The notes below the pieces were generated by a model that was not told where the DNA came from, ran no database searches, and was given only the letters and a program-made list of their open reading frames with translations. Below, in pieces: positions 1,962-40,272 of a DNA stretch of 64,000 bases. How positions within the stretch are numbered: position 1 is the stretch's first letter; every line of letters starts with the position of its first letter. Position numbers and translations under genes: made by a program. The stretch is from Candidatus Magasanikiibacteriota bacterium (GTDB taxonomy: Bacteria; Patescibacteriota; Patescibacteriia; Magasanikbacterales; UBA922), in contig JABIEQ010000010.1 in NCBI GenBank assembly GCA_018651085.1, forward strand, positions 1,688-65,687, read 5' to 3'.

Positions 1962-2441
1962 GTGAAGACCTTTACCCCTGTCCTTATCATCATCTCAGCT
2001 CTTTTTATCAACACTACGACAGAGGCTCAGATCGTTCAGACCTACATTACGACTGTTACCCCCATTTCCTACGATGGGACGTGGTCTAAAACGACCATCA
2101 GCACAGGGGGAGCCGCCATTCTTGTTCCCCTCGGGGAGGAAGGATGGTTCTTTCGTGGTTTACTAGGGGGAGGTGCGTTCTTGCAAGGCAACTCCAAACC
2201 CAGCGTGCCCGTAGCCCAAGGCTTTGGACTCCTTGGCTATAAACTCACTAAGGAATTTGTTTTCCTTGGTGGAGGTGGCATGAACGCCTTATTTCTTCCT
2301 ACTGGAGACACCAAAATTGTCATGACAGGGGTTAGTGGGGTAGGATGGGCTGTGAATAGACGTCTCCTCCTTGCAGGAGTGATGGCATTTACGCCAGATG
2401 GTTTTGCCCCTGGAGTACAACTTACGATCAATCTATTTTAG
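1962..2441 (+). CDS. small secreted Gly-rich protein, putative 8-strand OMP-like beta-barrel (GC-rich islet A)
   Basis: GTG start. Signal peptide MKTFTPVLIIISALFINTTTEA. Alternating amphipathic strands and a C-terminal ...GVQLTINLF with terminal Phe. Local GC is much higher than the flanks. Confidence 0.5.
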   Translation: MKTFTPVLIIISALFINTTTEAQIVQTYITTVTPISYDGTWSKTTISTGGAAILVPLGEEGWFFRGLLGGGAFLQGNSKPSVPVAQGFGLLGYKLTKEFVFLGGGGMNALFLPTGDTKIVMTGVSGVGWAVNRRLLLAGVMAFTPDGFAPGVQLTINLF

Positions 2442-2567: not shown

Positions 2568-5264
2568 TTATTTTAAGTTCCCCCAACTTTTTCCGATTTC
2601 GTATTCTACAACAACGGGCACTTTGAGTTCAACAACGGCTACCATGATGTCATGCAACTCTTTTGCTACGGATTCTTCTAATCCTTTTTTCACTTCAAGA
2701 ACGAGTTCGTCATGAACTTGCAAAAGAATTTTCACATCCTCTTTTTTATATGTCTTTTTAATATGCTTATGCATATTAATCATGGCAATTTTTGTAATGT
2801 CTGCTAACGTTCCTTGAATTGGCATGTTAATCGCCATACGCTCTCCTGACGCACGTACCTGAAAATTTCCTGCTTGTAGCTCAGGGACATACCGACGCCT
2901 TCCAAAGAGCGTCTCAACGTATCCAGTCTCTTTTGCTTTTTCTAATGTGTCATCAAGAAACTTTTTAACTCGAGAAAATGATTCAAAATATTTTTTAATG
3001 AATTCTCGAGCAACAGCTTGAGAAAGTTTTGTTCTTTGCGCAAGACCAAACGCTCCCATACCATAAAGTACGCCAAAGTTTACTTCTTTTGCCGAACGAC
3101 GCTGATCTTTTGTTACGTCTTCAAGTTTTACTCCATGAATAAATGCTGCGGTAGCTTTATGAATGTCTTCACCGTTTTGAAAAATGGCCATCATGTTTTT
3201 ATCTTCAGCCATTGATGCCACGATACGTAATTCCATTTGTGAATAATCAGCAGCAATGAGTATGTATCCTTCTTCTGCAACAAAAGCATCGCGAACTTTT
3301 TTTCCTTGTGTTGTTCTAATTGGAATATTTTGTAAGTTTGGATCTGAACTTGATAGACGACCAGTTGAAGCAACGGTTTGATTAAACGTTGTGTGAATGC
3401 GCCCTGTTTTTTTATTAATCAATGTTGGCAATACATCAACATACGTATTTTGTAGTTTTGAAAGTTCACGAAATGATTCAATCATTGCAATGATCTCGTG
3501 TTGATCACGAAGTTTTTCTAATTCACTCGCTGCAGTTGAATATCCCGTCTTCCCTTTTTTAATTCCTTCTGTTGGTAACTCCATTTTTTCAAATAGCACT
3601 TCTCGTAATTGCATGGAAGACGCTACATTAAACTCTTCTCCAGATTCCTTCCAAATCTTTTGAGTAATGTCCTTAAGGTCTTTTGCTATTTGGGTTGACT
3701 GCTCTTTTAATGCCTTTGTATCGAGTGCAATCCCATGTAATTCTGCTTGGGCAAGTGCTGGAATAAGCGCCATTTCCATATCTTCAAATAACTTGAGGTT
3801 CTCAGCTTCTTTTAATGATTTTTCTTGCTTTTTCTTTATCTCAAGTACTCGTTGTAGTTCACCGGCAATGAGTGTTGGGTCTACTCCAAACAAACTTGTT
3901 TGATCACCTCCGTCTACCATTGTTTCACCTAATTCTCGAAGCACGATGTCTTTTAAATTATGTGCACGTGTACTTGCATCAATAATGTATGAAGCAACCA
4001 TGACATCAAAAATTTTTGCTGCTATGTTTTTATTGTTCCACAACAATGCCCGCACAAGTTGTTTTAAGTTATGTCCAACAATGGTTTTCTTTTCATTCGT
4101 AAATAAACTGAACAATGTATCATTATCTTTTTTACTTATCTTTTTTACCTCAACATAATACGAATTCTTGTACGTTACAAAAACAAACCCTAAAAGGTCG
4201 CTTTCAAATACACTTGTACCACTAAGTACTTCTTTACACCCCCATTCTTTTTCAGCATTAAGTTCCTGAAAAAAAACAGCACTGTTTTTCTCGTTTACAA
4301 TAGTTATTTTTTTACTTCGTGCTTTTGTTTTTTTATTTCCGCTATGTTCGCTTTGTTCAACTCCAGGTATTCTTTTTACTAACGAATAAAAACCAAATGA
4401 TCGAAATAGATCTGTGACTTTTTTCACATCAAACTCATGCGCCACACATTTTGCTAATGTAAACTTCAGTTCTTTTACCTCGGTATGAATCGTTGCAAGC
4501 TCTTGGCTCATAAATGCATTGTCTTCACTTGCTTCAAGTTTTTCAATGATCCCTTTTTTAAATTCAGTATGTAAACGAGAGTCTTTGTCTTTTAGTTGTT
4601 TATAAATTTCTTCAAGACCACCAATCTCATTAATAAGTTTTGTCGCTCCTTTATCACCAATACCTTTAACTCCAGGAATGTTATCTGAACTATCTCCTTT
4701 TATTGATTTGTAGGTTACCACCATGTTTGGCCCAAAGGTAAACTTTTCGATAACTTTTTGTTCATCATATAATTCAAACTCAGATACCCCTCTTTTTAAA
4801 AGATATACATGTGTGTCTTCATCAACTAATTGTAAGAGATCTTTATCTCCAGTTACAATGACAAATTCAATATCTTCTTTGTTCTTTTTTACTTTTTTTG
4901 CAAGCGTACCAATAACATCATCAGCTTCAAACCCTTTTTGTTCGTAAATGGGAATATTAAACGCTTCAACAAGGTCGTGAGCAAGTGGAATTTGATCATA
5001 AAGATCCTGATCTGATTTTACCCGTGTTGCTTTATAGTCTTCATAAATTTCATCTCGAAAAGTTCCTCCAGGCATATCAAATGTCACTGCAAGGTATGTG
5101 GGTTTAATATCACTCAATATTTTCAATAGCATTAAGGCAAATCCGTACACGGCATTTACCACTGTTCCGTCTTTTGCGGTAAGTGGTGGCAGTGCGTGAT
5201 ACGCCCTATGAACAATAGCGTTCCCGTCAATAATGACAAATCGTGGTTTTTCTGATGTAGACAT
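2568..5264 (-). CDS. polA: DNA polymerase I (5'-3' exo, 3'-5' exo-like and polymerase domains)
   Basis: 898 aa. N-terminus FVIIDGNAIVHRAYHALPPLT matches the 5' nuclease. C-terminal palm motifs RRSAKEVNFGVLYG and LLQVHDELVLE are present. Confidence 0.95.
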   Translation of the reverse strand: MSTSEKPRFVIIDGNAIVHRAYHALPPLTAKDGTVVNAVYGFALMLLKILSDIKPTYLAVTFDMPGGTFRDEIYEDYKATRVKSDQDLYDQIPLAHDLVEAFNIPIYEQKGFEADDVIGTLAKKVKKNKEDIEFVIVTGDKDLLQLVDEDTHVYLLKRGVSEFELYDEQKVIEKFTFGPNMVVTYKSIKGDSSDNIPGVKGIGDKGATKLINEIGGLEEIYKQLKDKDSRLHTEFKKGIIEKLEASEDNAFMSQELATIHTEVKELKFTLAKCVAHEFDVKKVTDLFRSFGFYSLVKRIPGVEQSEHSGNKKTKARSKKITIVNEKNSAVFFQELNAEKEWGCKEVLSGTSVFESDLLGFVFVTYKNSYYVEVKKISKKDNDTLFSLFTNEKKTIVGHNLKQLVRALLWNNKNIAAKIFDVMVASYIIDASTRAHNLKDIVLRELGETMVDGGDQTSLFGVDPTLIAGELQRVLEIKKKQEKSLKEAENLKLFEDMEMALIPALAQAELHGIALDTKALKEQSTQIAKDLKDITQKIWKESGEEFNVASSMQLREVLFEKMELPTEGIKKGKTGYSTAASELEKLRDQHEIIAMIESFRELSKLQNTYVDVLPTLINKKTGRIHTTFNQTVASTGRLSSSDPNLQNIPIRTTQGKKVRDAFVAEEGYILIAADYSQMELRIVASMAEDKNMMAIFQNGEDIHKATAAFIHGVKLEDVTKDQRRSAKEVNFGVLYGMGAFGLAQRTKLSQAVAREFIKKYFESFSRVKKFLDDTLEKAKETGYVETLFGRRRYVPELQAGNFQVRASGERMAINMPIQGTLADITKIAMINMHKHIKKTYKKEDVKILLQVHDELVLEVKKGLEESVAKELHDIMVAVVELKVPVVVEYEIGKSWGNLK

Positions 5265-5366
5265 AGATATAGGGAAAATATTTTTTCACCATATCCATGG
5301 TCACCTCGTCTCCTCCAAACGACGAGGTGGTCCATGCACAGTGCACAGGAGATGAACAAAGACTCC

Positions 5367-5753
5367 CTACGTGAGCTTCTTTTCTCTCTCCATGATGTCT
5401 TCTAACAAAGAGACCGCCTGATCAGCGGCATATCTGCCGATCTCCCCGAATAGCCCTCCTCTTGAGTGTTCCTTTCGCAGGCGCCGAGCTTGGCGCCACC
5501 TGCTAAACCAGATCCACCCGATCCCGGGTGTTGCGGCGCACAGGGCACCGCCGATGGCGAGGGGCAGGATCATGGGGCCGTTGAAGACTCCGGAAAGCCC
5601 GAAGACCGTCACCGCAATCTGCATTGCGATGAGCATGACGCCGATCACTGGTGCGAGCACCAGTAACACCTGCCATCTTCTTGCTCGTGCTTCTGCCTTT
5701 TTCAGCTCCGCTCTGTCCTCGTTGGTTACCGTCGTCGCCAATGCCGTACTCAT
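5367..5753 (-). CDS. hypothetical 2-TM membrane protein (GC-rich islet B)
   Basis: ATG at 5753 is preceded by caggagg SD. Product MSTALATTVTNEDRAELKK...VLLVLAPVIGVMLIAMQIAVTVF... The region is GC-rich and ends in hairpin cacctcgtc/gacgaggtg at 5296-5330. Confidence 0.5.
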   Translation of the reverse strand: MSTALATTVTNEDRAELKKAEARARRWQVLLVLAPVIGVMLIAMQIAVTVFGLSGVFNGPMILPLAIGGALCAATPGIGWIWFSRWRQARRLRKEHSRGGLFGEIGRYAADQAVSLLEDIMEREKKLT

Positions 5754-5889
5754 AGGGTCCTCCTGTGTGTTGTGCATCTCCCTAGTTTGTACGTTCTATG
5801 GTACATGGAAGTCACAGGTACGTAAATAGGGAGAGATCTTGAGTAATTCTCTCTATTATGGTACATTGGACACGCTTGATTTTGCATTT

Positions 5890-5964
<75 letters not shown>

Positions 5965-5965
5965 A

Positions 5966-5999
5966 AGTAAAAAGCTCCCTCAATTGAGGGAGCTTTTTA
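5966..5999. terminator. intrinsic terminator aaagctccctc-aatt-gagggagcttt
   Basis: Perfect 11-bp stem 5971-5996 with A/T flanks. Serves tRNA-Cys (+) and the convergent 6013 gene (-). Confidence 0.6.
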
Positions 6000-6012
6000 G
6001 TATATATTTATT

Positions 6013-6594
6013 TTAGAAAATTTCCATTACTAACCTTTGTGCACCAAAGGTTACAGCTTCTGCACGAGACTTATCAGCATCAATTTTTCCGTTTTCTCCA
6101 AGTTCTGCCTTATAAAAGTCTACACGGTATTGTCCGTTATACTTTTTGTTCATCTTATCTCGTACGGTAAACACTTTATCTCCATAGATATCAGGAAATC
6201 GTACTTTTGTTCCGATAGCAAGCATGTTTGTTGCAATGGTATCTTCTAACCCATTTTCTTCAAACTGTTCACAAAGGTTAAATGACTCAAAGTACGGGAG
6301 ACATGGGTTTCCCCAGTTTTGCCAAGTATCAGAAGAATACGCTGTTGAAATAACTGTCACAATTCTTCGTGGTTCCCTTGTTCCTGCTTCGGGAAAGGCA
6401 ATGTCTTCAACCTGATAGACTCCTTTAAGAGAATCTACTTTGTTTGAAATTTCTGCGTGTACTACGGTATACGTCCCTGAGGCAACGAGAATAGCAATAA
6501 GTGTTGCTATTGTAATCACTGACTTAGAGAGGTTTCGGTAAATTTTGCTAAATAAAGCCTTTTTTAGGCGTTTCGAGGGTAAATCATCAATCAT
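6013..6594 (-). CDS. 3D-domain (MltA-like) cell-wall protein with N-terminal signal anchor
   Basis: C-terminal block LAIGTKVRFPDIYGDKVFTVRDKMNKKYNGQYRVDFY resembles a 3D domain. Start chosen at the Met preceding the signal anchor (MIDDLPSKRL...). The ORF track extends to a TTG at 6723. Confidence 0.5.
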   Translation of the reverse strand: MIDDLPSKRLKKALFSKIYRNLSKSVITIATLIAILVASGTYTVVHAEISNKVDSLKGVYQVEDIAFPEAGTREPRRIVTVISTAYSSDTWQNWGNPCLPYFESFNLCEQFEENGLEDTIATNMLAIGTKVRFPDIYGDKVFTVRDKMNKKYNGQYRVDFYKAELGENGKIDADKSRAEAVTFGAQRLVMEIF

Positions 6595-6998
6595 AGAATG
6601 AATATAATTGTACATGATTACCATTTTCTTTTGAAGTGTAGCTGTTGATATCTTCATAAACAGATATTGATTACCTTGTGTTTTATAACAAAATACTATA
6701 CCATAAATAGGACCTTTTGTCAATAGTTTTAACCCCTTTTTTAGCTTAACAAAGCCAAAATTTTATGCCTCGATCACCCCGTGGTGGACGCTCATATGGG
6801 TATGTTAATACCCCGCCTGATCACTCCCCTAAAAAGCGAAAAAAAATACAGAAAAATCAATCAACACCTTTAAAGAAAAAAAGAAATACTTCTTCTCGTT
6901 CTTTTGTTCCTCTATTACTCCTTCCTCTTCGTCTACTTGGGTGGCTATTAGTCCGTTTTTTTGGATTTTTTGCTCAGGTGCTCCGTAAAAAAGGAGGA

Positions 6999-10922: not shown

Positions 10923-12338
10923 TTACACAGTGCGCGCTCTTTGCTTTATAAGTTCTAGCTCTTCACGCATTTTTGCACTCTCTTTTATAGCATTTTGAAT
11001 CTTTGTGTGTGCATGCATTGCTGTTGTATGATCTCTTCCTCCGAGTTCTTGTCCAATTGCAGGATACGACATCTTCAGTTCGTCTCGAAGAAGGAACATC
11101 GCGATTTGTCTTGGAAGTGATAATCTTTTTTCTCTACTTTTTCCTCTAATGTCTTCAAGGGTAATGTCGTAAAACTTTACAATAAGTGCTATAAGTTCTT
11201 TTGGTGTAAGGATCTTTTTAAGACTTGTACTTTCAAAGCTTGCAAGTATAGAGTTTACCGTCTCTTTGCTTGGTGATATATTTTTTAGTTCATGATATGC
11301 AATCACCTTGTTTAGTGCGCCTTCAAGTTCTCTAATATTACTTTTTACTTTTTCTGCAATGATTTGAATAATATTTTCTGTTAAACCATAATTTTTTTCT
11401 TGGCATTTTGATTGGAGAATGGCAGCTCTTGTTTCTAGGTCAGGTGCTGAAATGTCTGCAATCATACCCCATTCAAATCTGCTTCGTAGACGATCTTCAA
11501 GTGCAGGGATAGCTTTTGGTGGTCGATCACTTGTAAGGACGACTTGTCTTCCGTGTTGGTGAAGTTCGTTAAAGGTGTGAAAAAATTCTTCTTGAGTTTG
11601 TTCTTTTCCTCCTATAAATTGAATGTCATCAATTAAGAGCAGATCAACATTTCTATATCGTTCTTTAAATTCTTTTGCACGCCCTTCTTTTACAGAAGAC
11701 ACAAATTCATTGGTGAACTTTTCTGAACTCACGTAGAGAATTTTTGTGTTTGGGTTTTCTGTAAGCATTTGGTCAGCAATGGCTTGAAGCAAATGCGTTT
11801 TTCCAAGTCCTACCCCACCGTATATAAATAATGGGTTATAAGCGTCTCCTGGGCGATTTGCAACGGCTTTTGCAGCTGCGTGTGCTAATTCATTTTGTTT
11901 CCCTACAATAAAGGTTGCAAAAGTATACTTTTTATTTAACCCAAACTGTGATGCTGATAACGTTGAGCGTTGATTTCCTGGATTTCGTTGGTATTGATAT
12001 CCTTGTGGTTGTTGTGCTGCTGGTTGTGTTGGGGCTGATGTTGCTCGAATAGGGGCACTTATAACAGCTTCTTGTTCTTCGACGTGTTTGATGTTTCCTA
12101 CGTTGTACTCTACCTTCTTAATAGGTTTTGATGTTACTCGTTCAAGAGATTTTACAACGTCAGAGTGGTATTTCTTTTGGAGCCAGCTTTGTGTAAAGGT
12201 ATTTGGTACAATTATGATAACGTTTCCTTCAGTATATTCACTAATACCGGTGTGTTTAAACCAGGTGGTGAAGTTTGCTTTAGAAATAGAGAGTTCAAAC
12301 TCGGCGAGAACAGCTTGCCAGATTTCATGATTGGTCAT
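10923..12338 (-). CDS. dnaA: chromosomal replication initiator DnaA
   Basis: 471 aa. AAA+ Walker A GGVGLGKTHLL. C-terminal DNA-binding signature LGGRDHTTAMHAHTKI. Confidence 0.95.
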   Translation of the reverse strand: MTNHEIWQAVLAEFELSISKANFTTWFKHTGISEYTEGNVIIIVPNTFTQSWLQKKYHSDVVKSLERVTSKPIKKVEYNVGNIKHVEEQEAVISAPIRATSAPTQPAAQQPQGYQYQRNPGNQRSTLSASQFGLNKKYTFATFIVGKQNELAHAAAKAVANRPGDAYNPLFIYGGVGLGKTHLLQAIADQMLTENPNTKILYVSSEKFTNEFVSSVKEGRAKEFKERYRNVDLLLIDDIQFIGGKEQTQEEFFHTFNELHQHGRQVVLTSDRPPKAIPALEDRLRSRFEWGMIADISAPDLETRAAILQSKCQEKNYGLTENIIQIIAEKVKSNIRELEGALNKVIAYHELKNISPSKETVNSILASFESTSLKKILTPKELIALIVKFYDITLEDIRGKSREKRLSLPRQIAMFLLRDELKMSYPAIGQELGGRDHTTAMHAHTKIQNAIKESAKMREELELIKQRARTV

Positions 12339-12718
12339 AGATATGTGGAAAAAAGGAAGAAATTAGAGGTGAAATATGTGTGTAACCTCATTTTAGCACA
12401 AAACCTTTTTCTAAAAAATTGCTTTACTTAGCCAAAAGTTAGTAATATGGGGATAAGTTGTGCACAGTGTGGATAAGTGTCTCTTCGTTTGTGGTCATTC
12501 TTGTTTATGTGTAGGGCTTTTTTATTTTTTCGGAAAGGTTTGTCTGTCTTTTTGTTTTTTTTATTTTTTCCTTTGTTAAGAGAAAACCTTGACATATTTC
12601 CTCTTTTTCGTTATAGTGATATCGCTTTACAAGTGAGGTCGTGTCGCAAGAGTTATTTGTGATAAAGATCTCCATTTTTTAATATAAAGCGTTGCCGACT
12701 ATTCTATTTTTGTAATAT
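12339..12718. promoter_or_regulatory. divergent rpmH/dnaA intergenic region with DnaA boxes and AT-rich tract; candidate oriC or dnaA promoter
   Basis: Perfect TGTGGATAA at 12468-12476 and GGGGATAAG at 12449. T-rich tract at 12520-12580. Classic rpmH<->dnaA arrangement. Confidence 0.45.
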
Positions 12719-18839: not shown

Positions 18840-19140
18840 ATGTGTAGCCTTTTTTTTCTTTATTTTTGGCATTTAAAAAAAGTATAGACTAGTCTATACT
18901 TTCATTTATTTGGTTGATTTATCCCCATTTTAGGGGAGTTTTACACAGAGTTATCCACAATGTATAGATTAGTCTATACAAATAGCCGATATATACTGTG
19001 AATATATCGTGTATAGCTTCTTTTGTTCCTGTTTATTTCTTGGGGATAGCTCTTTTTTCTCTTGTTTTCCACAGTCTTAGGTGGTTTTACACAGATTTAT
19101 CCCCTTTTGTAGAGAGTAGTGTATACAAACAGAGTTTTGC
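18840..19140. promoter_or_regulatory. cluster of DnaA-box-like 9-mers and 16-bp palindromes; candidate oriC or DnaA-regulated/titration locus
   Basis: TTATCCACA perfect at 18951-59. TTATCCCCA at 18919-27. TTATCCCCT at 19097-105. TTTTCCACA at 19065-73. gttttacacag appears twice, each adjacent to a box. Palindromes TATAGACTAGTCTATA (18883) and TATAGATTAGTCTATA (18963). AT tract at 18850-18880. Confidence 0.4.
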
Positions 19141-33113: not shown

Positions 33114-33845
33114 TTACACAATGTTTTCTTTTTTTACAAAGCGCCATCTTCCTGGGGGAAGTGTTCCAATAGTAAGTTTGGCCATTTGTATTCTTTTTAG
33201 TCCTGTGATGCTATATCCAAGTCGTCCAAACATTTTACGGACTTGTCTGTTTTTTCCTTCATGAAGAACAACGGTGACAACTGTTCGTTTTCCTCTTATA
33301 CTTTCATTTGTAATTTTAATTCCTTTTACGCGTTTGTCTCCTAACGTCATTCCTTTTGTTAATATGTCTTTTGCGTCTCTTGTTAGAGGTTTGTCAATTG
33401 TCACCTCATATAGCTTTGTATGTTCATACCGTGGATGGGTGAGTTTGTTTGTAAGTTCTCCATCATTTGTAAGAAGTACTAATCCTTCTGAATCTTTGTC
33501 GAGGCGTCCTACTGGATATACTCTTTCTTTTACGTCTACACCAAATTTTGGTTTAATGTTATTTTCTTTTACCAGTAGATCTATCACAGAAGCTCCTTGT
33601 GCGCTTGTGGTGGTTGTAATGTAATCTACGGGCTTATTAAGAGCAATGTATATGTTTTTCCCTTTCTTAAGGGGTTTTTCTCCAAGTATGTCTACTTCAT
33701 CTTTTTTGGGGTTTACCTTTGTCCCAAATTTTGTTATTACTTTTCCATTTACTTTTACGCGCCCTGCTTCAATGAGTATCTCTGCTTTTCTTCTTGAACA
33801 AATACCGAGGTCTGCAATATGTTTTTGTAGTCGGATAAGGGTCAT
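33114..33845 (-). CDS. rluB: 23S rRNA pseudouridine synthase (RsuA/RluB family) with S4 domain
   Basis: S4 domain LQKHIADLGICSRRKAEILIEAGRVKVNGKV. Catalytic VGRLDKDSEGLVLLTNDG. Confidence 0.8.
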   Translation of the reverse strand: MTLIRLQKHIADLGICSRRKAEILIEAGRVKVNGKVITKFGTKVNPKKDEVDILGEKPLKKGKNIYIALNKPVDYITTTTSAQGASVIDLLVKENNIKPKFGVDVKERVYPVGRLDKDSEGLVLLTNDGELTNKLTHPRYEHTKLYEVTIDKPLTRDAKDILTKGMTLGDKRVKGIKITNESIRGKRTVVTVVLHEGKNRQVRKMFGRLGYSITGLKRIQMAKLTIGTLPPGRWRFVKKENIV

Positions 33846-33913
33846 AGGGGTTGATTAAGTTAGGGTTTTATGGTACATATGGGGTTGGACGCACATTGTT
33901 GTGCGAAGGAGAT

Positions 33914-34204
33914 AACATGGACGATAGATTGTCTGGTCTCAACTTTTTTTATGTGAGGGCGCAATTGTCTTCTTGGGGCTTGATCCCTGACGAAGACAGG
34001 GAGCGTATCCTTCAAGAAGTGGACGCAGCTCGTCAGGATCCACCTAACCTCGAGGAAGAAGATCCTCAGGGTACGAAGGCTTCTATTTCTGATGGGGATC
34101 TCAAGAGGATCCTTGGAGAGCTTCAGGGCCCCTTCAATCAGATGTGGGATGATTGGATACGAGCAACCGCTGAGATGGGAGGGTATGATCTTGACTCCTT
34201 GTAG
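33914..34204 (+). CDS. hypothetical small acidic protein (GC-rich islet C)
   Basis: aaggag SD lies 7 nt before ATG 33914. Product MDDRLSGLNFFYVRAQLSSWGLIPDEDRERILQEVDAARQD.. The TATGGTACAT motif lies about 40 nt upstream. Confidence 0.45.
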   Translation, partial: NMDDRLSGLNFFYVRAQLSSWGLIPDEDRERILQEVDAARQDPPNLEEEDPQGTKASISDGDLKRILGELQGPFNQMWDDWIRATAEMGGYDLDSL

Positions 34205-34536
34205 CCTGTGAAGGGAGCACGGGCTTCGGGTACGACGGTAAGGCGACATGCTTTGCCGTCGTCACCTTGCCTATTTTTGTATAGTAATTATTTTTCTCTT
34301 TTTTAAGTATTTTTCAATAGTGTTATGAAGCGCGATGTAATGCATCGTGTTTTTATATATCTTTAGTTAACCGTATTTAGTCTTTTTTAGCAATGGGGGT
34401 ATATATTGACAGTCGTCTTTATCTATGATAATTATTTTTTTAAGGTCCTGTGTGCATGTATGGGGCTTTGTTATTTGTATTTTTTTGTTTGGGTTGATAT
34501 AGTCTGGGTAGTTTGGGACTTTCATAGGAGGTTCAT

Positions 34537-34852
34537 TGTGGTTAGGAAAAATGGTGTGAAAAGGAAGGGGTTCAAACAAAAAGGGTATGTCGATATTCTT
34601 CGCGAAGGTCCGCGAATGTCTGTTGATGGAACCTTTCTTAGAGAAGGAGATAGGAGGAGACTGGGTGTCCGTTGGTTTACTCGCTTTGAGAAGCGAAGTA
34701 AGGGGGCTCGAGAAATCTTCGTGATTGAAGAACACCGTGGTAGCAGGGAGAAAAGAGTTCTGCACCAGCTGCTGGTTCATCACGATGGACTCTATCGGGT
34801 CTCACGAAGAGGGATCATACTTCTCGAAGAAAGTAACCGCGCTACAGGGTGA
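34537..34852 (+). CDS. hypothetical small basic protein (GC-rich islet D)
   Basis: aggagg SD then GTG 34537. Arg/Lys-rich product ..GVKRKGFKQKGYVDILREGPRMSVDGTFLREGDRRRLGVRWF.. Promoter TTGACA..TGATAAT at 34395-34421. Terminator hairpin at 34921-34950. Confidence 0.4.
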
Positions 34853-34949
34853 GATCTGGGGCGTTAGCGAGGGCTCAGTCTTCGCGTTAGTTATAATAAG
34901 TGTATTGTTCTTACTAACGAAAACACCACCCTTATTGGGTGGTGTTTGG

Positions 34950-35903
34950 TTATGCACGGATGATAGCAAAAGCGATATAGGTAATATATAACAGGACGAA
35001 AAGCCACCCTTGCCATCGTTTGAGTTGGTGCTTGGGTCCAATAAACATGAAGGCAAAAAGAAGAAATGTAATAAAACAGGTAAATAATACGTCAGTATTT
35101 ATTGCAACATTAAATGGAAGTGGTTTGATGAGTGCTGTAATTCCTAATATCCAAAAGACATTGAAAATGTTTGATCCAATAGCATTTCCAATAGCAAGAT
35201 CAGTGTGTCCTTGGCGTATTGCTGATACTGTGGTTGCAAGTTCTGGTAGCGATGTTCCAATTGCTACAATGGTAAGACCAATAATTCTTTCACTTAACCC
35301 GGCCTGTGTCGCTAGAATTATTGCATTATCTACAATCCATTTTCCTCCAAGGACAAGACCAACAATTCCTATAGCAAACATGAATAGTGATGTTGACCAG
35401 TTGTATGTTTCTACTTCTTCTTTTTCTGTCTCTACCTTAGAGATGCCATAGACATGGTAAAGAAATATGATGAAAAATAAGAGGAATATCATTCCGTCAG
35501 CACGGCTTAATACGTTTACTGATGTGTGATTTAAAAATCCATCGTTTCCCATGATAGCTACAACAAAAATTGCGAGTAGGGCAAAGGGTATTTCTTTGTA
35601 AGTAGTGCCCCTTTTTATTTTTAAGGTTTTAATTATCGCTCCAATTCCTAGAATAAGAAGGATGTTTGCCATGTTACTTCCGATAATGTTGGCAATTGCT
35701 AAATCAGTAGTTCCTTTAGTAGCTGAAAGAAGGTTTACAACAAGTTCTGGTGCAGATGTACCAAAGGCAACAACAGTAAATCCAATTGCAATTGCTGAAA
35801 TACCAAATCGTTTTGCGATAGATGCTGATCCACGGACAAGCATTTCTGCTCCACCAATTAAAATGGCGAGACCAAGAATAAGAAAGAGAATAGGGATAAT
35901 CAT
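34950..35903 (-). CDS. CaCA-family Na+/Ca2+ exchanger (YrbG-like)
   Basis: Two alpha-repeats GTSAPELVVNL and GTSLPELATTV. 10 TMs. Confidence 0.8.
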   Translation of the reverse strand: MIIPILFLILGLAILIGGAEMLVRGSASIAKRFGISAIAIGFTVVAFGTSAPELVVNLLSATKGTTDLAIANIIGSNMANILLILGIGAIIKTLKIKRGTTYKEIPFALLAIFVVAIMGNDGFLNHTSVNVLSRADGMIFLLFFIIFLYHVYGISKVETEKEEVETYNWSTSLFMFAIGIVGLVLGGKWIVDNAIILATQAGLSERIIGLTIVAIGTSLPELATTVSAIRQGHTDLAIGNAIGSNIFNVFWILGITALIKPLPFNVAINTDVLFTCFITFLLFAFMFIGPKHQLKRWQGWLFVLLYITYIAFAIIRA

Positions 35904-36030: not shown

Positions 36031-36282
36031 ATGACGACTTTGGATAGAGGCCATTATTCATACGGAACTGTGGTTCAGGTTGAGAAGGATGGAGCGCTGA
36101 CTTTGTATTTTCAGTACCACCCTGTTCCCGGTCGTGAACATTGGATTGTCGTTGTGCCCGAAGAAAAAAGAGGATACCTTCGGGTGGGTTCGAGTTTCTA
36201 TCAGCGGCGTCCCTTTAAGAGTGAGGGAATCACCATCGTCGAGAGGTATTTCACACAGTTGGTTCAGGTTCACGGAGGGTAG
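36031..36282 (+). CDS. hypothetical small protein (GC-rich islet E)
   Basis: MTTLDRGHYSYGTVVQVEKDGALTLYFQYHPVPGREHWIVVVPEEKRGYLRV.. Composition is distinct from the flanks. Confidence 0.4.
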   Translation: MTTLDRGHYSYGTVVQVEKDGALTLYFQYHPVPGREHWIVVVPEEKRGYLRVGSSFYQRRPFKSEGITIVERYFTQLVQVHGG

Positions 36283-39609: not shown

Positions 39610-40272
39610 TCATGGTTGAGCCTCCTCCTTCCCCTTGTTGGTGTCGATTTTTTTTGTGCCTACGACGACTTTTCCTCTTTTGAAGATGATATCGAATCGG
39701 GTTGCCCCTCGTCTCATCTTCTGGATGTCGGGCTTCAATAAGGTAAGCCTCACGCTTTTTCCCAGTCCGTCGGGGTTAAAGGTGAAACGTCGTTTCATCT
39801 CAGCTCCATGCAGTCCCTCAGGTGCTTCGAAGCGAATAAACACTTGGAGAGGTTCGTGCATACCGCCGCCTGCGAGTAGCATGGTGCGTCCTCCTTGAGA
39901 AGTCACGCTGTATATGAAGACGGTGTGCCCTTTGGCTACTGCATCTTCGAGTACAAACATTCTTTCTTCAGTTTGAACAGCCCTCTTCTGGAGTCCTTCC
40001 ATCATGTTCTCGAGTTGTCCGATCTTCTCGAGAAGGGTGATCGCTTCAGAAGACAGCTCTTCAGGCTCTTCCTCTGGTACGACCTCCATGATGCTTGCCA
40101 GAGCATCTTGTTGGGCTTTCAGGATGGTCTTGATGACTTCTCCTTTTTTGCCCTTTGGAGACACTCCTAAACTTTCGGCGATTTGCCTTACATAGGTGGC
40201 GTCTTCGTTTCCCTTGGCCTTGCTTTGGCCTAAGGTGAGTCCTTTGAGCTCTTGCTCGGTCCACTCTTTCAT
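39610..40272 (-). CDS. hypothetical protein with Rho_N/SAP-like N-terminal motif (GC-rich islet F)
   Basis: ATYVRQIAESLGVSPKGKKGEVIKTILKAQQ resembles the Rho N-terminal helix-hairpin. A beta-rich C-terminal half follows. About 50 % GC versus AT-rich flanks. Confidence 0.5.
   Translation of the reverse strand: MKEWTEQELKGLTLGQSKAKGNEDATYVRQIAESLGVSPKGKKGEVIKTILKAQQDALASIMEVVPEEEPEELSSEAITLLEKIGQLENMMEGLQKRAVQTEERMFVLEDAVAKGHTVFIYSVTSQGGRTMLLAGGGMHEPLQVFIRFEAPEGLHGAEMKRRFTFNPDGLGKSVRLTLLKPDIQKMRRGATRFDIIFKRGKVVVGTKKIDTNKGKEEAQP

Follow-up and report, generated by a model that had tools for sequence, protein, structure and literature searches.

Promoters of the extended -10 class that carry a TRTG motif, the '-16 region', are of the Gram-positive type, are read by the housekeeping sigma factor and have been studied in E. 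coli and Bacillus subtilis; extended -10 promoters are able to dispense with a -35 box. The propagation of promoters in prokaryotes, in the form of putative mobile promoters, was reportedly described by Matus-Garcia, Nijveen and van Passel in Nucleic Acids Res in 2012. To our knowledge, no promoters have been mapped in the Candidatus Magasanikbacteria lineage. In the case of bidirectional bacterial promoters (Warman et al. 2021, as cited in PMC10268837 and PMC12825309), a symmetric -10 principle and divergent pairs of transcription start sites (TSSs) 7-25 bp apart have been described (PMC10268837), with reciprocal -11A/-7T pairing in those TSS pairs that are 18 bp apart (PMC10268837).

The DNA analysed here (the window) is a 64-kb stretch of a metagenome-assembled genome of ~37% GC labelled Candidatus Magasanikbacteria, which carries dnaA, dnaN, polA and rpoBC and is interspersed with segments of ~50-58% GC (islets A to E). 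It contains the decamer TATGGTACAT exactly three times, always on the plus strand and in non-coding DNA (sites 1 to 3, Table 1), and this decamer is probably the core of TRTGn extended -10 promoters of the housekeeping sigma factor (sigma-70 type) and not an islet-specific element. Like members of the extended -10 class, it consists of TATG, one base and TAnnn(T), accompanied by TTGAnT at a spacing of 17 nt at sites 2 and 3; additionally, T(R/T)TGnTAnnnT occupies the same slot in four relatives, and the TRTGn class is enriched in non-coding DNA. It departs from the class in that C and T take up positions 3 and 5 of the hexamer (TACATn, compared with TATACT in the lineage consensus), in that T at -7 is seen at site 2 only, and in that the letter identity of three copies over 10 nt exceeds what the class requires. 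With promoter propagation the locus shares the occurrence of a similar short upstream sequence before non-homologous genes (tRNA-Cys and the islet C ORFan) near horizontally acquired DNA, but the shared sequence is far shorter here, at 10 nt exact or ~38 nt at ~74% (sites 2 and 3), and has no mobile-element context.

Occurrence of the decamer in the window

The recurrence of TATGGTACAT and the positions of its copies had been put forward in a sequence-only reading of the same DNA, and both were borne out by exact matches, all three on the plus strand. The bases preceding site 2 are 'tat' and not 'tta' as given there, and the distances of about 30 and 40 nt to the downstream genes have been corrected to 23 nt between the end of site 2 and tRNA-Cys (5890) and to 38 nt between the end of site 3 and the ATG of islet C (33917). 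Against an expectation of 0.11 copies, none of 100 shuffles reached three. The earlier figure of 0.1 expected copies is correct for a single word specified in advance, but takes no account of the 1567 distinct 10-mers that have at least three copies in the window (~926 in first-order Markov simulations), and owing to this look-elsewhere effect the statistical weight of TATGGTACAT is much below what that figure implies. When the analysis is confined to non-coding DNA (6.8 kb, 10.7% of the window), 38 10-mers occur at least three times, compared with ~3 expected; most of these represent A/T runs from terminators, and the few complex words among them are DnaA boxes (TTATCCACA), -35 boxes (TTGACAAAAA, TATTGACAAA) and TATGGTACAT. 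Since all three copies are located in non-coding DNA, where complex recurrent words are few, TATGGTACAT is a credible cis element.

The reading that promoter function is confined to site 2, and perhaps site 3, and that the three-fold identity is a meaningless coincidence draws on the number of 10-mers that recur in the window and in random sequence, on the post hoc choice of the motif and on the fact that its first seven bases are common promoter consensus. We consider this very unlikely, as the three copies have the same orientation and all fall within the non-coding tenth of the window, where complex recurrent words are rare, and as an estimate based on a position weight matrix (PWM) also argues against it. 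Under a generic promoter PWM for this genome, which is small and derived from a TATAAT-biased scorer, the non-consensus 10-mer has P = 5.7e-5 and the triple identity is expected ~1e-4 times or less. A generic promoter model does not account for the shared non-consensus C-A-T (hexamer positions 3-5), which leaves a small chance of an overlapping operator or of promoter copying.

The flanking 18.6 kb of the contig contained no additional copy of TATGGTACAT, and no copy with one mismatch or fewer was detected in the other non-coding regions of the window. The one-mismatch copies, seven in number, are all inside coding regions, while copies with up to two mismatches total 80 in the window, compared with 64 expected. 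The shorter word TATGGTA has five of its ten copies in the non-coding 10.7% of the window, and all five are located in divergent spacers.

Table 1. Coordinates of the decamer copies and associated features (window positions).
Feature	Position	Strand	Remarks
Islet A	1962-2441	+	
Islet B ORF	5367-5753	-	128 aa, two predicted TM helices, 58% GC, GC3 0.69; ORFan
SD AGGAGG of islet B	5759-5764		
TATGGTACAT site 1	5797-5806	+	exact match; 60 nt upstream of site 2
Candidate -35 TTTACG	5821-5826	-	predicted; 17 nt upstream of minus-strand TACCAT
-35 box TTGAGT of tRNA-Cys promoter	5839-5844	+	17 nt upstream of TACATT; aligns with the relatives' conserved CTTGAAAAAAAG
TATGGTACAT site 2	5857-5866	+	exact match; hexamer TACATT 5862-5867
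tRNA-Cys (GCA)	5890-5964	+	ARAGORN; Rfam 65 bits; 22 nt after hexamer
Hairpin terminator, perfect 16+16	5968-5999		follows tRNA-Cys; terminator scan, inverted repeat
rluB-like pseudouridine synthase	33114-33845	-	divergent from islet C, 71-nt spacer
-35 box TTGATT	33851-33856	+	17 nt upstream of TACATA
TATGGTACAT site 3	33869-33878	+	exact match; hexamer TACATA 33874-33879
5'-UTR hairpin of islet C	33890-33905		CGCACA-TTGT-TGTGCG, 6 bp, z = -4.5, just before SD
SD AAGGAG of islet C	33906-33911	+	
Islet C ORF	33917-34204	+	95 aa, 50% GC; ORFan
Islet E	~36032-36282	+	
Islet D	39610-40272	-	

Probable promoter architecture of the motif

TATGGTACAT can be parsed as a TRTGn extended -10 element, in which TATG forms the -16 region and, after a single spacer base, the remaining five bases open the hexamer TACATn. 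At all three sites TG is found at -15/-14 (TRTG at -18 to -15), one base before the hexamer. The hexamer of site 2 (TACATT) has T at -12, A at -11 and T at -7; of these three bases, only T at -7 is missing from the hexamers of site 3 (TACATA) and site 1 (TACATG). A -35 box resembling TTGACA at 16-18 nt is present at sites 2 and 3, where TTGAnT lies exactly 17 nt upstream of TGgTACATn, confirming the earlier suggestion that the motif overlaps a promoter -10, while the corresponding slot on the plus strand of site 1 is occupied by TCCCTA, which does not resemble this box. The motif lies 22-37 nt upstream of the tRNA or start codon at sites 2 and 3, and each of these is followed by a complete transcription unit, i.e. 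the tRNA and its terminator (site 2) or a Shine-Dalgarno (SD) sequence and ORF (site 3). Judged from sequence, site 2 has all, and site 3 most, of the features of a housekeeping-sigma extended -10 promoter, and the motif largely qualifies as such. A sigma-54 promoter (-24/-12, TGGCAC-N5-TTGCW) was also considered, as TGGTACA resembles the -24 box, and was rejected since neither TTGC nor GC is found at the 10-nt spacing at any of the three sites.

In non-coding DNA, the pattern TRTGNTANNNT reaches five times its density in coding DNA (0.51 and 0.10 per kb, respectively), and it marks host promoters, including those of the AT-rich genes dnaA, ftsK and the gene at 6013-6657. The promoter of the last-named gene reads TTGACA-17-TATAGT and is preceded by TTATGG, which is found upstream of the -10 in AT-rich host genes. 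A weight matrix of 20 other predicted promoters yielded the consensus TATGGTATAC, and promoters read TTGACA-N12-TATGGTATACT in the relatives L013 and L035 and TTGACA-N-TATGGTAATTT in the relative L012. Together, this matrix and the promoters of the relatives indicate that the first seven bases of TATGGTACAT are lineage consensus. We propose that TATGGTACAT is a variant of the lineage-wide TTGACA-N12-TATGGTATACT, and that the islets are foreign ORFans placed behind host-type promoters. This data-based consensus, of the TRTGn extended -10 type, is a gain of modest value for an uncultured lineage of the Patescibacteria type. In viral contigs, counts of the extended promoter pattern were consistent with chance.

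Islets A, D and E do not carry the motif, and their promoters have other -10 regions: TTGACT-17-TATTAT with TATGa at islet A (-10 region TATGATATTAT), TTGACA-18-TAATTT with TGt at islet D (-10 region TCATGTTAATTT) and TTGCGG-17-TAGGGT with TGg at islet E (-10 region TTTGGTAGGGT). Furthermore, the orientation of the motif relative to the islet genes is opposite at islet B (gene on the minus strand) and islet C (gene on the plus strand), and thus it does not constitute a single oriented 'islet promoter'.

Site 2 and the tRNA-Cys gene

Relatives with PolA 51-60% identical were chosen for comparison, and the tRNA-Cys loci of L011, L012, L014 and L015 were compared with that of the window, the promoter in each case being the best-scoring upstream candidate. 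These candidates read TTGAGT-17-TATGgTACATT in the window, TTGAAA-17-TATGaTATGAT in L011, TTGAAA-17-TGTGtTACTCT in L012, TTGAAA-17-TATGaTAAGCT in L014 and TTGAAA-17-TTTGcTATCGT in L015. The architecture TTGAnn-17-T(R/T)TGnTAnnnT is common to all five genomes, and site 2 fills its -10 slot. In L011, L012 and L014, tRNA-Cys is divergent from polA at a distance of 75-175 nt and no islet is found between the two. Since the position of site 2 is shared with four relatives, three of which are islet-free, it belongs to a host promoter and is not islet-associated. Together with its TTGAGT box, site 2 would serve as the promoter of tRNA-Cys, with a predicted TSS near 5874. The claim that the motif occurs only upstream of islet genes does not hold, given that site 2 serves a conserved tRNA gene and that three islets are without the motif. 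TATGGTACAT is probably not a special switch for foreign GC-rich genes, since one of its copies drives this conserved tRNA gene.

Site 1 and islet B

Three relatives (L011, L012 and L014) have a tRNA-Cys/polA spacer without islet B. Site 1, which lies between islet B and site 2, is ambiguous as a promoter. On the plus strand, its hexamer TACATG has G at -7 and no -35 box; on the minus strand, a hexamer TACCAT (5803->5798) is located 44 nt before the ATG of islet B with a candidate -35 box of its own, and this minus-strand promoter is the best candidate for the ORF at 5367-5753 (score 8). Site 1 may be an upstream tandem promoter of tRNA-Cys or, more likely, the islet B promoter acting via TACCAT; either usage is predicted. 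It is also located in the loop of an 8-bp dyad, TCTCCCTA/TAGGGAGA (5777-5784/5827-5834), the DNA fold of which has z = -3.1.

Outside the 10-mer, sites 1 and 2 have no flank similarity (6 of 19 upstream bases match). Both are to one side of the islet B ORF, with no more than 50 nt between them, and the ancestral -35 box is part of that interval. A local or target-site duplication was rejected as their origin, because nothing is shared beyond the 10-mer and the repeats do not flank the islet.

In L015, the tRNA-Cys/polA spacer (L015:8350-10000, compared with 5265-5889 of the window) holds a different ORFan of 336 aa, with ~65% GC and very high third-position GC. This ORF has its own promoter, TTGACA-17-TAGAAT, which when written with its preceding bases, TTGACA-17-(catg)TAGAAT, is analogous to the site 1 minus-strand promoter of islet B. 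It seems that foreign genes have landed in this spacer repeatedly, and independently in two related genomes.

Imperfect inverted repeats bracket the islet B ORF at 5334-5359 and 5760-5781 (15/18 and 11/12 complementary), the right arm containing the SD; by a rough estimate ~0.3 such arrangements are expected by chance. They could represent pairing of 5' and 3' UTRs, a remnant of terminal repeats or chance.

Site 3 and islet C

Site 3, with TTGATT at 17 nt, would be the promoter of islet C, with a predicted TSS near 33886 followed by the 5' hairpin and the SD. On the opposite strand it reads TACCAT, facing rluB. In relatives with RluB 57-66% identical, rluB lies directly behind a co-oriented CorC/CBS gene; neither a divergent spacer nor an islet is present at rluB in these genomes, which thus contain no spacer orthologous to that of site 3. 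As the relatives lack a divergent spacer at rluB, the islet C/rluB spacer is lineage-specific.

Two further observations concern the surroundings of site 3. A metagenome contig of 1.5 kb (Ga0209662_1031313) agrees with the window at 100% identity across residues 59-243 of rluB, while its first 104 nt (L031:1-104) are unrelated and AT-rich; either the end of this assembly is chimeric or rluB contains a structural variant. Between islet C and a Na/Ca-exchanger gene, ~480 nt that include a GC-rich stretch (34597-34912) lie downstream of a promoter close to consensus (TTGACA at 34406, 18 nt, AATTAT); no convincing ORF was recognised in 34406-34950, nor an Rfam match even at E<=1, and the region could encode a non-coding RNA not described before or several small ORFs.

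Symmetry of the motif

The quasi-palindrome that had been noted earlier is present but weak, consisting of ATG/CAT (3+3 bp) around GTA. The genes flanking all three sites are divergent (islet B/tRNA-Cys and rluB/islet C), and TATGGTA provides a TAnnnTA core, TATGGT on the top and TACCAT on the bottom strand, with reciprocal -11A/-7T at each site. From the divergent flanks and this core we infer that the weak 3+3 palindrome reflects promoter symmetry and does not require a dimeric regulator; the symmetry inherent in -10 elements between divergent genes accounts for it more simply than the dimeric regulator that had been suggested. Both the TSSs and any bidirectionality are predictions made from the DNA sequence.

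The TAnnnTA core and the location in spacers between divergent genes at all three sites are features that the motif has in common with bidirectional promoters. It differs from them in that the plus-strand hexamer that fits the -35 box is TACATn and not TATGGT; the divergent starts predicted here are ~23 bp apart, which is inside the range of 7-25 bp but misses the modal 18 bp (PMC10268837). In addition, the opposite-strand TG abuts its hexamer, compared with the canonical TGn spacing. A constraint on both strands (ATGgTA on top, ATGTA on the bottom) was tried as the cause of the letter identity and rejected as unsupported in relatives: ATGnTACAT occurs there once in non-coding and four times in coding DNA, and as it is thus not enriched, the dual-strand constraint is without independent support.

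Regulator binding and promoter copying

A sequence-specific regulator with an operator overlapping the -10 could co-regulate tRNA-Cys and islets B and C, the copies at a distance of 60 bp allowing cooperativity. Three exact copies with unrelated flanks would be accounted for in this manner, as would the recurrence of a non-consensus -10 variant, which a generic promoter model does not lead one to expect; among the other complex 10-mers that recur in non-coding DNA are real protein-binding sites (DnaA boxes), a TrmB-family regulator gene (626-1762) lies 4 kb from sites 1 and 2, and site 1 is within the dyad TCTCCCTA/TAGGGAGA. We nevertheless regard such an operator as unlikely, since the dyad of 3+3 bp falls short of half-sites of ~4-6 bp, its symmetry is extended inconsistently by the flanks of the three sites, the first seven of the ten bases of the motif are general promoter consensus, islets A, D and E are without the motif, and no candidate regulator is linked to both loci. 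Regulon operators usually show degenerate copies elsewhere, but near-exact non-coding copies (one mismatch or fewer) are missing from the rest of the window, as are extra copies from the 18.6-kb flanks. A LexA-like or GntR-like palindrome (TGTAC-N8-GTACA) was recognised at site 1 and was rejected as the basis of the motif, being missing at sites 2 and 3.

Descent of the copies from one another, by copying or recombination of a segment of the tRNA-Cys promoter to positions before acquired genes, would be consistent with the similarity of sites 2 and 3, which share TTGAnTAAnT-N8-TTATGGTACAT and, 0 or 7 nt further on, TTGGAC(A/G)C, so that ~28 of 38 aligned positions match with one indel. As the similarity of these two sites extends beyond the 10-mer, it is conceivable that a promoter segment was copied; exactness without degenerate relatives fits a recent event, and islets B and C are lineage-specific insertions in need of promoters. 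However, sites 1 and 2 have nothing in common outside the 10-mer, sites 2 and 3 resemble each other to a large extent at consensus promoter positions, and neither flanking repeats nor recombinase signatures are present; moreover, the nearby copies 1 and 2 do not flank the islet and thus do not represent a target-site duplication or att core. Such descent is therefore, in our view, highly doubtful. Sites 2 and 3 were also considered as att cores of a 28-kb element, which was rejected since the interval holds the core genes dnaA, dnaN and rnpA, among others. A comparison of strains was uninformative on the motif, as the 20+ contigs of this population are at least 99.7% identical.

Nature of the islets

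The islet ORFs are preceded by strong SD sequences, and their GC3 of 0.5-0.7 (0.25 in host genes) and codon usage are foreign. Searches for homologues of islets B, C and D among 5.8e9 proteins returned self-matches only, as did a full HMMER search of islet D against 1.8e9 representatives, and the islet proteins gave nothing significant against Pfam and PHROGs. Rfam, at its gathering threshold, identified tRNAs only, and at E<=1 the regions 5250-6010 and 34250-35000 gave terminator-like noise only. The islets look like foreign genes inserted in promoter-containing divergent spacers and not like a co-regulated module.

A regulator or promoter class dedicated to the islet genes, as had been proposed, finds no support: site 2 is in the slot of the tRNA-Cys promoter of four relatives, three of them without an islet, TATGGTA is the general consensus of AT-rich host-gene promoters here and in relatives, islets A, D and E have -10 sequences of their own, the motif faces opposite ways with respect to the islet B and islet C genes, and the other non-coding regions hold no near-exact copies of the kind usually seen with a regulon operator. 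It is quite unlikely that TATGGTACAT is a specificity element, be it an operator or a copied promoter module, that wires islets B and C into the control of tRNA-Cys. If it were, it would represent a dedicated mechanism for domesticating foreign genes in a reduced-genome bacterium, and a small, concrete case of foreign genes wired into a minimal regulatory network. The probable reading, i.e. extended -10 promoters of the housekeeping sigma factor, bears on how the islets are to be read, with host-type promoters and not a private regulatory system before lineage-specific GC-rich ORFans. The islets themselves, as species-specific foreign ORFans, are the more interesting biology nearby.

Additional observations

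The islet A ORF encodes a protein of 159 aa without a Pfam or PHROG match; its N-terminus is like that of a signal peptide, and its last residues are ...INLF. The product resembles a small outer-membrane beta-barrel, which would be unexpected for a cell of the Patescibacteria type. Approximately 4 kb beyond the start of the window, near islet A and polA, a gene for an IS1595-family transposase and a second TrmB-family regulator gene are located (L028:14955-15803).

The tetranucleotide GTAC occurs six times within 150 nt (5746-5894) around sites 1 and 2, the densest such cluster in the window; its P of ~0.04 is marginal, and two of the copies are part of TATGGTACAT and one is part of the tRNA. 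DnaA-box-like 10-mers are located at 18950, 24966, 27668 and 54008 (TTATCCACA) and at 12447, 16861 and 18919 (TTATCCCCAT) of the window, being spread over several spacers and not only beside dnaA (10923-12338).
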